29,429 nucleotides of DNA from Candidatus Micrarchaeia archaeon (GCA_049976845.1 JBMFHL010000008.1:1-29429); one strand, 5' to 3'; shown: positions 12,026-14,982, numbered from the stretch's first letter. Notes: generated by a model from the letters alone, not told the origin. A program made the numbers and translations.

Positions 12026-12565
12026 TCAGGTATATTTGACAGTGAATGACGCTACCTTTTGTACTGTGTTACCGTATCCTGGGATCGTGTAGTTAAGCCA
12101 TATAAAGCCGTAGAATGCATCGCCAAGCGCCCCAGTGGCAACGCCTCCTGCTTCATAGCAGTTGGTTTCAAACATATTCCCGCTGCCGCTATAGACAACA
12201 ATGCCGTTTGAAAGTGCATTGTTCGGATATGCATTATAAGGATAGTAAGCAGGATTAGAGGTTACATATATATTGCCATAAGCCGGCAGGCTGCCTGTCG
12301 CATTCTGCGAGGCGGAGCATGCAATACCTTTCACGGTTATTGGTCCGCCTGTTGCCTGTGCAAGATATATACTCATGGCGCCTGTAGTGTTTATTGAAAA
12401 CAACGAGCACGAAAAACCAGGTTCCGGCGTGCAAGAAACGGGCGCCGCAGTCGGATTCAGGACACCCACTTTATATATTACAGCGACAGCTATCACGATT
12501 ATTATTATTGCTATTCCGTAAGACATTAGGAAATCAACGGAAGCTTGCGCTTTCAAACGCATCAT
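12026..12565 (-). CDS. pilin-like protein with a class III signal peptide
   Basis: N-terminus RLKA|QASVDFLMSYG followed by a hydrophobic helix; Cys-containing, beta-rich, N/S/T/G-rich ectodomain. Confidence 0.72.
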   Translation of the reverse strand: MMRLKAQASVDFLMSYGIAIIIIVIAVAVIYKVGVLNPTAAPVSCTPEPGFSCSLFSINTTGAMSIYLAQATGGPITVKGIACSASQNATGSLPAYGNIYVTSNPAYYPYNAYPNNALSNGIVVYSGSGNMFETNCYEAGGVATGALGDAFYGFIWLNYTIPGYGNTVQKVASFTVKYT

Positions 12566-13176
12566 CTTGCCTTTATCTCCATTTTGGCCTCGAAATCAGA
12601 GATATTGTAGTTGAATTCCTCATTAGACTTTATTATACCTTTCTCTTTCAGGTATTCCCTAGCAAGAAGATAATATACAACTGCAAGCGATCTCCTTCCC
12701 TTGTTGTTGCATGGTATTATAAGGTCAACGAATTTTACCCAGTTGTCTGTGTCGCACAGCGCAATGACCGGTATGCCTGTTTTGCTTGCCTCTTTTATCG
12801 CCTGCCTCTCATTCCTTGTATCGCTGATTAAAACTATGCCAGGCTCGATGAAATCCTTCCTGTTAGGATTTGTGAAGATCCCAGGCATAACGCGACCCTG
12901 CATAAACTTCATTTTTGTTATCTCTGCAAATTTTGAAGCTGCTGAAATTGCATAAATTCTAGAAGCGGTAACTACTACCTCTTTTTCATCGTATCTCGCA
13001 AGAGTCTTAGCAGCAATCTTTATCCTATTGTCTATTACTGGAAGGTCAAGAAGGTAAAGCCCATCTTCCCTAACCTTGTATATAAACTTCTTCATTCCTG
13101 GAGTTTTAATCTTAGTGCCTATATGCACGCCAGCTTCCAAATATGTCGCTTGATCTATAAGTAATTCATTGCCCAT
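12562..13176 (-). CDS. rps2: 30S ribosomal protein S2 (uS2)
   Basis: Motifs YLEAGVHIGTK, PGIFTNP, IPVIALCDTDN, IPCNNKGRRSL. Confidence 0.97.
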   Translation of the reverse strand: MGNELLIDQATYLEAGVHIGTKIKTPGMKKFIYKVREDGLYLLDLPVIDNRIKIAAKTLARYDEKEVVVTASRIYAISAASKFAEITKMKFMQGRVMPGIFTNPNRKDFIEPGIVLISDTRNERQAIKEASKTGIPVIALCDTDNWVKFVDLIIPCNNKGRRSLAVVYYLLAREYLKEKGIIKSNEEFNYNISDFEAKMEIKAR

Positions 13177-13193
13177 ACAAACACCATATATTT

Positions 13194-13291
13194 CGGGGTC
13201 GCCGAGATTTTCATTCTCATTTTGAATTCCCGACGTTCTCGGGTCATGTGCCCCCTAAGCACAGAGCCTGACCAGGCTAGCAGACGACCCC
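13194..13291 (-). tRNA. tRNA-Pro(AGG) with two introns: 53/54 (11 nt, 13227-13237) and 59/60 (13 nt, 13208-13220)
   Basis: Acceptor GGGGTCG/CGACCCC; D-loop AGCCTGGTCA; anticodon arm TGTGC-TTAGGGG-GCACA; T-stem CCGAG/CTCGG. Removing both inserts restores TTCAAAT. It occupies the usual tRNA-Pro slot after rpoN. Confidence 0.88.
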
Positions 13292-13339
13292 TTATCTGTT
13301 ATTTAACTGCAATTGGTTTTTATCCTTATCGCTTCCTAG

Positions 13340-13537
13340 TCATTTCCTTCCGTACTCTATTACTTCATCTATGAGGTCTACATGCCCTACAAGCATTCTC
13401 CTGCAGCAATATCTTTTAACACCAAGGTCATCAAGTGCCTTCTCGGGGTCTTCTCCTTTGTCAACCTTATCTTTGAATTTCTCCCATTTGTTTCCTATCA
13501 CTTGGCCGCAGGAAAAACATCTTACTGGTATCATCAT
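13340..13537 (-). CDS. rpo10: DNA-directed RNA polymerase subunit N (Rpo10)
   Basis: [10 protein letters not shown]...[14 protein letters not shown]. Confidence 0.97.
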
Positions 13538-13546
13538 ATTAACACC

Positions 13547-14059
13547 TTACCTGTATGAGGTCTGGAACCTCGCCCTTGCTTTAGGGCCTTTGAACTTCTT
13601 TGGCTCTACCTGCCTCACATCGTCAACAAGCAGTGCCCTATCATATTTCATATATGCCTTCCTAACAACGTCGCTGCCCGCAGCTTCCGCTATTGCTTTT
13701 GCTATTGCTGTTCTAGCAGCTTGAGCTTGTCCACTAATCCCTCCTCCTCTAACATTCACTTTTATGTCAGAAGCGTCTGCTATCTCTTTTGTAAAGCTCG
13801 AAAAGTTGACGGGCTCCAATATAAGCTCCCTTATCTCTTCAGGTTTTATCATGTCAACATTTACATTATTCACTCTTATAGTGCCATTGCCCTTCACAAG
13901 CCTGACTCTTGCAACAGCGCTTTTCCTTTTCCCTTTGGCGAGCACGACCTTCTGCTTTATGCCCCTCCTCTTCTGCTTGGCTCCCTTTTTCTCTGCTTGG
14001 GCAGGCGCAAGCGAGCCAAGTTCTTTGTTCAGATTTTCTATATTTTGGTCCTGTGCCAC
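13547..14059 (-). CDS. rps9: 30S ribosomal protein S9 (uS9), N-terminally extended
   Basis: Motifs GKRKSAVAR, VRGGGISGQAQA, EPKKFKGPKARARFQTSYR. Confidence 0.96.
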   Translation of the reverse strand: MAQDQNIENLNKELGSLAPAQAEKKGAKQKRRGIKQKVVLAKGKRKSAVARVRLVKGNGTIRVNNVNVDMIKPEEIRELILEPVNFSSFTKEIADASDIKVNVRGGGISGQAQAARTAIAKAIAEAAGSDVVRKAYMKYDRALLVDDVRQVEPKKFKGPKARARFQTSYR

Positions 14060-14882: not shown

Positions 14883-14982
14883 TGCGGGGGGTGAGATTTG
14901 AACTCACGCAAGCTCTAAAGCTACAGGAATTTTGAAAAAATTCCTCAATCCTGCGCGTTTGACCAAGCTCCGCCACCCCCGC
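14883..14982 (-). tRNA. tRNA-Leu(GAG) with a 13-nt canonical 37/38 intron (14930-14942)
   Basis: Acceptor GCGGGGG/CCCCCGC with A73; long variable arm; anticodon stem CAGGA/TCCTG. The intron AATTTTTTCAAAA forms a TTGA/TCAA helix with GG^A and AA^T cut sites. Confidence 0.93.

Follow-up and report, generated by a model that had tools for sequence, protein, structure and literature searches.

A tRNA-Pro gene with a genome-encoded wobble adenosine (anticodon AGG) and two T-arm introns, conserved throughout a family of Micrarchaeota

The window analysed here, i.e. the whole 29,429-nt stretch of Candidatus Micrarchaeia archaeon DNA (GCA_049976845.1 JBMFHL010000008.1:1-29429), carries on its minus strand a doubly intron-split tRNA-Pro gene with an adenosine at the wobble position of its anticodon (AGG). 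An adenosine is present at this position in 105 of the 117 other genomes of the same family (f1), whereas the gene found in the same slot in the sister family (f3) reads GGG. It is probable, in our view, that this A34 is left unmodified, and that tRNA-Pro(AGG) serves both CCU and CCC in this one family of Micrarchaeota (DPANN archaea).

The gene was parsed by hand, and the parse was then checked with ARAGORN after in-silico splicing. Its parts are the following (positions counted from the first letter of the window):

13194..13291, minus strand: pre-tRNA-Pro(AGG), 98 nt, from G1 (13291) to the discriminator G73 (13194); CCA is not encoded
13238..13291, minus strand: exon 1, comprising the acceptor 5' strand, D arm, anticodon arm, 4-nt variable region and T-stem 5' strand CCGAG
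13247..13263, minus strand: anticodon arm, with the stem UGUGC (13263..13259)/GCACA (13251..13247) and the 7-nt loop UUAGGGG
13254..13256, minus strand: anticodon A34 (13256) G35 (13255) G36 (13254), from the sequence reading and from ARAGORN on the spliced product
13227..13237, minus strand: intron 1, 11 nt, position 53/54, with helix CCCG/CGGG (4 bp), 3' bulge AAU and outer helix UGA/UCA
13221..13226, minus strand: exon 2, UUCAAA, i.e. T-loop positions 54-59
13208..13220, minus strand: intron 2, 13 nt, position 59/60, with helix UUCA/UGAA (4 bp), bulges AAA and AAU, and the T stem as outer helix
13194..13207, minus strand: exon 3, comprising U60, T-stem 3' strand CUCGG, acceptor 3' strand CGACCCC and the discriminator G

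The acceptor stem, GGGGUCG/CGACCCC, is followed by U8 C9 and by a weak D stem, UGCU/GGCU (U10.U25, G11-C24, C12-G23, U13.G22), which closes the loop AGCCUGGUCA; the variable region is the 4-nt UGAC. Read on the minus strand, the anticodon loop consists of U32 (13258), U33 (13257), A34 (13256), G35 (13255), G36 (13254), G37 (13253) and G38 (13252), so that the G35 and G36 of a tRNA-Pro anticodon are present together with G37. Between the T-stem strands CCGAG and CUCGG there are 31 nt instead of 7. Removal of both introns in silico leaves a 74-nt product which ARAGORN calls as tRNA-Pro(agg) and which displays a 7-bp acceptor stem, a D arm with G18G19, a 5-bp anticodon stem, U33, a 5-bp T stem and the T loop UUCAAAU. 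The unspliced pre-tRNA has a minimum free energy of -42.2 kcal/mol (z = -4.41), and none of 200 shuffled sequences folded equally well. Other registers were considered, namely a 9-bp extended acceptor helix, a T arm UGAGA/UCUCG with the loop AUGAAAA, and a shifted anticodon stem; each of them would abolish the D arm or leave the T loop without its UUC, and relatives lacking an intron give the true junctions, so that none was retained.

In its unspliced form the gene is missed by ARAGORN, whether its intron mode is on or off, and by the Rfam tRNA model, both at the gathering threshold and at E values up to 10; the cause is the presence of the two short T-arm introns. Since these hide the gene from tRNA finders, an automatic annotation will report a missing CCY (CCU/CCC) decoder. 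U8 C9 and the D stem UGCU/GGCU with its U10.U25 mismatch (window 13270-13284, minus strand), as well as the discriminator G73, are common to the tRNA-Pro(AGG) and the tRNA-Pro(CGG) of the same genome, the latter lying at G000:C23:734-807 (plus strand). The tRNA-Pro(UGG) of relatives has the D stem GGCU/GGCU.

Both introns, at 53/54 and 59/60, have the geometry of a 3-nt bulge next to a 4-bp helix. The 5' cut of intron 1 falls in a loop, two bases beyond the helix, which by hand analysis is the relaxed hBH form; in the relative L010 a full inner helix turns intron 1 into a strict BHB motif. At intron 2, runs of A allow the cut to shift by up to 3 nt further 5' with no change in the product. The predicted junctions hold beyond hand folding, as they are displayed naturally by relatives devoid of one intron: intron 2 is absent from L008, L012 and L016, which read UUCAAAU CUCGG, and intron 1 is absent from L013-L015 and L018-L020, where UUCAAA directly follows CCGAG. 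A single 24-nt T-loop intron was discarded, as it could not yield a UUC T loop. As both motifs need the same CCCG bases, the cuts are probably made sequentially, one intron being removed before the other. A candidate for the enzyme was found in the same genome: a 391-aa open frame with two matches to the tRNA-intron-endonuclease family PF01974 (at G000:C1:33321-33794, minus strand), which to judge from its length and domains is probably a three-unit epsilon2-type splicing endonuclease as in ARMAN-2. The ARMAN-2 EndA is described, in the part of PMC3239211 that deals with it, as a three-unit epsilon2 enzyme of 387 aa that cleaves relaxed motifs. Across orthologues, intron bodies are free to vary, and the 4-bp helices and bulges are kept. 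All 105 parsed A34 loci (within the set L002-L115) have at least one T-arm intron, with 18-53 nt between the T-stem strands; 2 of the 13 parsed G34 loci are intron-less.

The gene lies on the same strand as its neighbours, in the order L13, S9, rpoN, tRNA, S2:

13547-14059, minus strand: rpS9, upstream of rpoN
13340..13537, minus strand: rpoN (RNA polymerase subunit N), the upstream neighbour (PF01194, 112 bits)
12562..13176, minus strand: ribosomal protein S2, the downstream neighbour (PF00318, 84 bits)

The initial annotation had described an AGG anticodon in the loop UUAGGGG closed by a perfect 5-bp stem, a position after rpoN as usual for tRNA-Pro, and two intact splice motifs; on each of these points our parse agrees with it. 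The source genome (G000) is a metagenome bin of 731 kb in 52 contigs, with 41.7% GC and an estimated completeness of 90%. Searching sequencing runs for the gene sequence returned six small-share DNA runs, from hot-spring metagenomes; no RNA run was listed.

Conservation was assessed by an order-wide pattern scan of 248 genomes. A purine at position 34 (R34 pattern) was matched in 106 of the 117 family relatives; one of these, G071, had a chance match in a non-stem context only, and the listed rows for the others gave A34 in a stem-forming anticodon arm, i.e. in 105/117 genomes (a count that includes G054, flagged as unpublished, on which alone we base no claim). The 12 family genomes devoid of a stem-forming A34 arm are all less than 90% complete, the 11 non-matching ones being 65-88% complete. 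When 19 relatives' loci were parsed by pattern, 18 had a YUAGGG loop and the nineteenth (G023) was found as A34 in the order-wide scan. In a public genome collection, an A34-specific anticodon-arm pattern matched 84 species genomes; among the 80 titles listed, nearly all were Micrarchaeota, Micrarchaeia, Micrarchaeales or Micrarchaeaceae, and the remainder consisted of two Marsarchaeota, one 'bacterium' and one 'archaeon'.

At thresholds of at least 4/5 anticodon-stem, 4/5 T-stem and 6/7 acceptor pairs, 118 loci could be parsed (some genomes being present in more than one set), of which 105 had A34 and represented 38 distinct exon sequences. In all 38 the stems pair at every position, save the family-typical U10.U25. 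Double changes are seen in the anticodon stem, at 27:43 (UA to AU), 28:42 (GC to AU), 29:41 (UA to CG) and 30:40 (GC to CG), and in other stems at 52:62 (AU to CG or GC), 5:68 and 6:67; such compensatory changes mean that the gene is under selection for structure. The anticodon loops found in the 118 loci were UUAGGGA, UUAGGGG, CUAGGGC and UUGGGGU. Positions 32 and 38 thus vary while A34 is invariant in 105 species-level genomes. The claims of the initial annotation that the gene is real rather than decayed, and that A34 is truly genome-encoded, are borne out by this conservation, by the compensatory changes and by the lack of a GGG copy in G000; same-family relatives have AGG, GGG being confined to the sister family, which is the opposite of the finding (relatives with GGG, and a normal tRNA-Pro(GGG) alongside) that it had named as fatal to its proposal. 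In one family member, G073 (73% complete), the A34 gene is accompanied by a GGG copy, which lies on a short contig (C84:423-449) and has the stem CCAGC/GCUGG, as in the sister family; this contig is probably mis-binned.

In the sister family f3, the same rpoN-tRNA-rpS2 slot holds a gene with the same two introns and the loop UUGGGGU, hence the anticodon GGG, in each of the 10 orthologues parsed. The order-wide scan matched 80 of 129 f3 genomes and the single f2 genome, and among the rows listed (all but 45) all stem-forming f2 and f3 matches were G34. With an A-only pattern applied to a phylum-wide sample of 401 genomes, 74 of 82 f1 genomes were positive, against 1 of 94 in f3 (a match without complementary stem) and 0 of 1 in f2. 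Among 33 other families there were 3 matches in 223 genomes, none of them stem-forming; since the pattern relies on the GGCU D-stem strand typical of this order, the lack of matches there is not evidence that A34 is absent. The simplest history would be one G34-to-A34 change at the base of f1, with A34 kept since. A34 does not revert in any of the 105 genomes, and the sister family is just as constant in its G34; some factor seems to keep each state in place. A neutral choice between A and G would be expected to flip; the invariance of A34 argues that something selects for A, possibly a modification enzyme.

The other tRNA-Pro genes were listed for G000 and its relatives. In G000 only AGG and CGG were found, and no GGG copy. 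Among five well-assembled family members examined through the D-arm pattern, G002, G004 and G009 have AGG, UGG and CGG, G016 has AGG and UGG, and G023 has UGG and CGG (its AGG gene was seen in the order-wide scan). Overall, tRNA-Pro(UGG) is present in 86 of the 117 family relatives and in 29 of the 33 high-quality genomes. It was not found in G000 (90% complete) by motif search, by anticodon-arm scan, by BLAST with the gene of a same-genus genome or at a partly syntenic place on contig C3. The UGG gene is present in 5 of 6 same-genus genomes, and in the family it is often no more than a few hundred bases away from where a contig ends, as if the locus were hard to assemble; for these two reasons we take the gap in G000 as incompleteness, and the relatives suggest that G000 would have the full set of Pro isoacceptors. 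With UGG and CGG kept in the family, it is GGG that AGG replaces as the reader of CCU and CCC; the set is otherwise unaltered.

Pro is the only amino acid with an A34 anticodon among the 40 tRNAs parsed in G000; Leu keeps GAG. The tRNA-Leu concerned, a class II tRNA at 14883-14982 of the window (minus strand), was called Glu(ttc) by ARAGORN without introns and Leu(gag), with a 13-nt intron, when introns were allowed; the hand parse gives the anticodon GAG and a 13-nt intron after position 37, so that G34 is kept for Leu, unlike in ARMAN-4/-5. Several other features of the tRNA complement of G000 were noted. A tRNA with the anticodon UAU (Ile) and a 33-nt intron is present at G000:C31:5248-5355 (minus strand), which fits the use, reported in the relevant section of PMC3239211, of tRNA-Ile(UAU) by ARMAN archaea in place of agmatidine-modified CAU. 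Three partial or sub-threshold tRNA matches of 26-29 bits (G000:C1:94580-94638, C9:15268-15339 and C9:26932-27000), one resembling a tRNA truncated beyond the T stem, the others covering only model positions 8-63, may represent tRNA genes that are split, permuted or interrupted by several introns. The 887-base contig G000:C47 has two intron-less, AT-rich tRNAs back to back (Asn GUU, 476-547, and Ala UGC, 563-634), the anticodons of which duplicate ones found elsewhere in G000; this contig may be a bin contamination.

We looked for an enzyme able to deaminate A34. The deaminase family PF00383 has matches at one place only in G000, and the protein is a tetrameric cytidine deaminase (TIGR01354, 131 bits for a cut-off of 114), which is the only CDA-fold protein of this genome. 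PF00383 was matched in none of the 6 same-genus genomes searched, in 8 of the 24 family relatives and in 9 of the 15 genomes from the G34 sister family; being commoner in the G34 family and sparse in f1, PF00383 does not track A34. The family proteins looked at were of the cytidine-deaminase, dCMP-deaminase or RibD type. The exception was a 209-aa TadA-like protein in G023, which scored 73.9 bits on the TadA model for a cut-off of 150. PF14437, which is matched by TadA proteins and was positive in 12 of 14 control genomes, gave no match in G000, G004, G009 and G016, and PF02137 (the ADAT1/ADAR family) gave none in any of five genomes. When all six frames of G000 were scanned for the zinc-deaminase motif, only the cytidine deaminase and one non-coding-looking frame came up. 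Overall, no TadA/ADAT-type deaminase was found in G000 or in three of four near-complete relatives, these negatives coming from HMM and motif searches of incomplete metagenome-assembled genomes (90% for G000) which a non-CDA or very divergent enzyme would escape. Within HMM sensitivity and genome completeness, it thus appears from the genomes searched that none of the known kinds of A34 deaminase occurs throughout the family. G000 encodes A34 and has no detectable TadA/ADAT2-type deaminase and, within the same bounds, this is the combination expected where A34 is left unmodified. Of the two options put forward by the initial annotation, an unmodified A34 or an unrecognised editing activity, the result leans towards the first.

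Codon usage was then compared. In 592 crude ORFs of G000, CCU was counted 2525 times, CCC 753, CCA 2525 and CCG 1156. The CCC/(CCC+CCU) ratio of 0.23 is the lowest such ratio of all codon boxes, which fits weak reading of CCC; the sister family is similarly depleted. Relative to five other four-codon boxes, the log-odds of CCC versus CCU were -0.72 for 9 A34 genomes and -0.55 for 11 G34 genomes (Mann-Whitney p = 0.49, with crude ORF calling, loci of ~20 kb (12.6-20 kb) and related genomes that are not independent), so that CCC depletion is no greater in the A34 family than in the GGG family. In GC-rich A34 genomes CCC even exceeds CCU (82 versus 53; 56 versus 47), which indicates that CCC is still well served after the switch.

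How, then, is the gene to be understood? An assembly or binning error, or a decayed pseudogene, might be suspected since the source genome is a 52-contig metagenome bin and since standard tRNA finders miss the gene. However, A34 recurs in 105 species-level genomes that are independent of one another, its pattern is matched by 84 public records, and all stems and both splice motifs are maintained; in addition, two Logan contigs from other runs (X1 and X4), which belong to relatives ~90% identical, span the gene and show no difference over 13180-13309 among the rows listed (all but 19), a weak argument in the same direction. Conservation and the maintained stems and motifs effectively refute this reading, to which we leave hardly any weight. 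It is rather improbable, too, that the tRNA is a minor one, with tRNA-Pro(UGG) reading all four CCN codons and AGG being redundant and lightly used, or bearing some other A34 modification. The presence of UGG in 86 of 117 family relatives and the unresponsiveness of codon usage to the G34-to-A34 switch would suit such a role, but a redundant gene should decay or vanish in genomes of 0.6-1.1 Mb, yet this one persists in 105 of 117 relatives with compensatory changes and splice motifs maintained, and in the sister family its G34 counterpart is conserved to the same degree.

Conversion of A34 to inosine by an enzyme outside the TadA/ADAT2-3 and ADAT1 families, giving a tRNA that reads CCU, CCC and CCA as in eukaryotes, is unlikely but ranks second among the readings. 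The strict invariance of A34 in the 105 family genomes, next to variable positions 32 and 38, is what selection for a substrate base would produce; CCC use is not lowered relative to the G34 family; and Fujishima et al. 2011 (PMC3239211) compared what they saw in ARMAN-4/-5 with the way eukaryotes proceed. Against it, there is no candidate enzyme: the PF00383 proteins are of cytidine, dCMP or RibD type and are found in a lower share of f1 than of sister genomes (8/24 versus 9/15), PF14437 and PF02137 have no match in G000, G004, G009 and G016, and the sole TadA-like protein (G023) falls far short of its cut-off (73.9 bits versus 150). Moreover, tRNA-Pro(UGG) is retained, so no codon needs inosine, and reviews know of no A34 deaminase in archaea (PMC8007984). 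The broader proposal that f1 turns A34 into inosine or another modified base through an enzyme unrelated to TadA/ADAT, for which an A34 invariant in more than 100 species without a known deaminase leaves some room, is a long shot; if true, no wobble inosine would have been known in archaea before it, and the enzyme would found a new family of tRNA editors.

We therefore favour an unmodified A34: as no tRNA-adenosine deaminase is detectable, this base most likely stays an adenosine. The course of events could be as follows. In the ancestor of f1, the wobble G34 still present at this locus in the sister family would have changed to A34 and then become fixed. The two T-arm introns of the transcript would be cut out, presumably by the 391-aa three-unit endonuclease. 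A34 would then pair with CCU by Watson-Crick geometry and read CCC too, a reading that G-C pairs at the two remaining codon-anticodon positions would make tolerable; the Pro box is thus where a G34-to-A34 change costs least. The tRNA-Pro(UGG) and tRNA-Pro(CGG) would take CCA and CCG. Such decoding has bacterial precedents: as summarised in sections of Schmitt et al. 2024 (PMC11066159), an E. coli orthogonal tRNA(AGG) shown to be free of inosine reassigned CCU and CCC about equally, and the same behaviour is given for a tRNA-Pro mutant of Salmonella whose A34 was unmodified (Chen et al. 2002, cited in that article).

In reviews, archaea are described as having neither tRNA genes with ANN anticodons nor an A34 deaminase (PMC8007984, and the corresponding passage of PMC11066159). 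The novelty implied by the initial annotation was nevertheless overstated, since a section of Fujishima et al. 2011 (Nucleic Acids Res 39:9695, PMC3239211) had already reported tRNA-Pro(AGG), together with tRNA-Leu(AAG), in ARMAN-4/-5, with no G34 counterparts; a literature search for A34 tRNA-Pro in Micrarchaeota found only this ARMAN-4/-5 statement. New in the present analysis are the family-wide fixation of A34 (105/117 relatives) and the fact that two sister families divide cleanly into G34 and A34 at a single orthologous locus interrupted by two introns; that no TadA-like gene was found and that codon usage shows no response are new as well. Taken together, this locus and the ARMAN-4/-5 report mean that the archaeal no-ANN rule has exceptions in DPANN. 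With more than 100 species-level genomes seemingly devoid of an A34 deaminase, f1 is a natural test case for decoding by an unmodified wobble A, and also for the question of why ANN anticodons are normally avoided.

Four known systems can be set beside this one. As depicted in the sections of PMC3239211 devoted to them, ARMAN-4/-5 (Candidatus Parvarchaeum) are also DPANN/ARMAN archaea with a wobble A in tRNA-Pro and no G34 copy in the genome; they differ in being Parvarchaeota instead of Micrarchaeota and in having A34 in Leu as well as in Pro, whereas here only Pro has it and Leu keeps GAG. The gene has two T-arm introns here, and fixation in more than 100 species genomes does not appear in those sections. 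The legend of Figure 1C in the same article places T-loop introns at 53/54 and 59/60 in the pre-tRNA-Pro(GGG) of ARMAN-2 (Candidatus Micrarchaeum acidiphilum), and a weak D arm is reported there for the ARMAN-2 tRNA-Pro isoacceptors. Thus the phylum, both intron positions, the weak D arm of tRNA-Pro and, probably, a three-unit endonuclease of ~390 aa are shared, and the anticodon differs, being reported as GGG there and AGG here. The bacterial tRNAs(AGG) with unmodified A34 (the Salmonella mutant and the E. coli orthogonal tRNA) have the same anticodon and, in the account given by the sections cited above, a tested deaminase-free mechanism; they are laboratory constructs, whereas the archaeal gene is natural, long fixed and known from sequence. 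In eukaryotes, finally, tRNA-Pro(AGG) is converted to IGG by ADAT2/ADAT3 (PMC8007984). There as here, a genomic AGG stands for GGG beside UGG and CGG; unlike in eukaryotes, no ADAT2/3 or TadA homologue is detectable here, and one codon box, not eight, is concerned.
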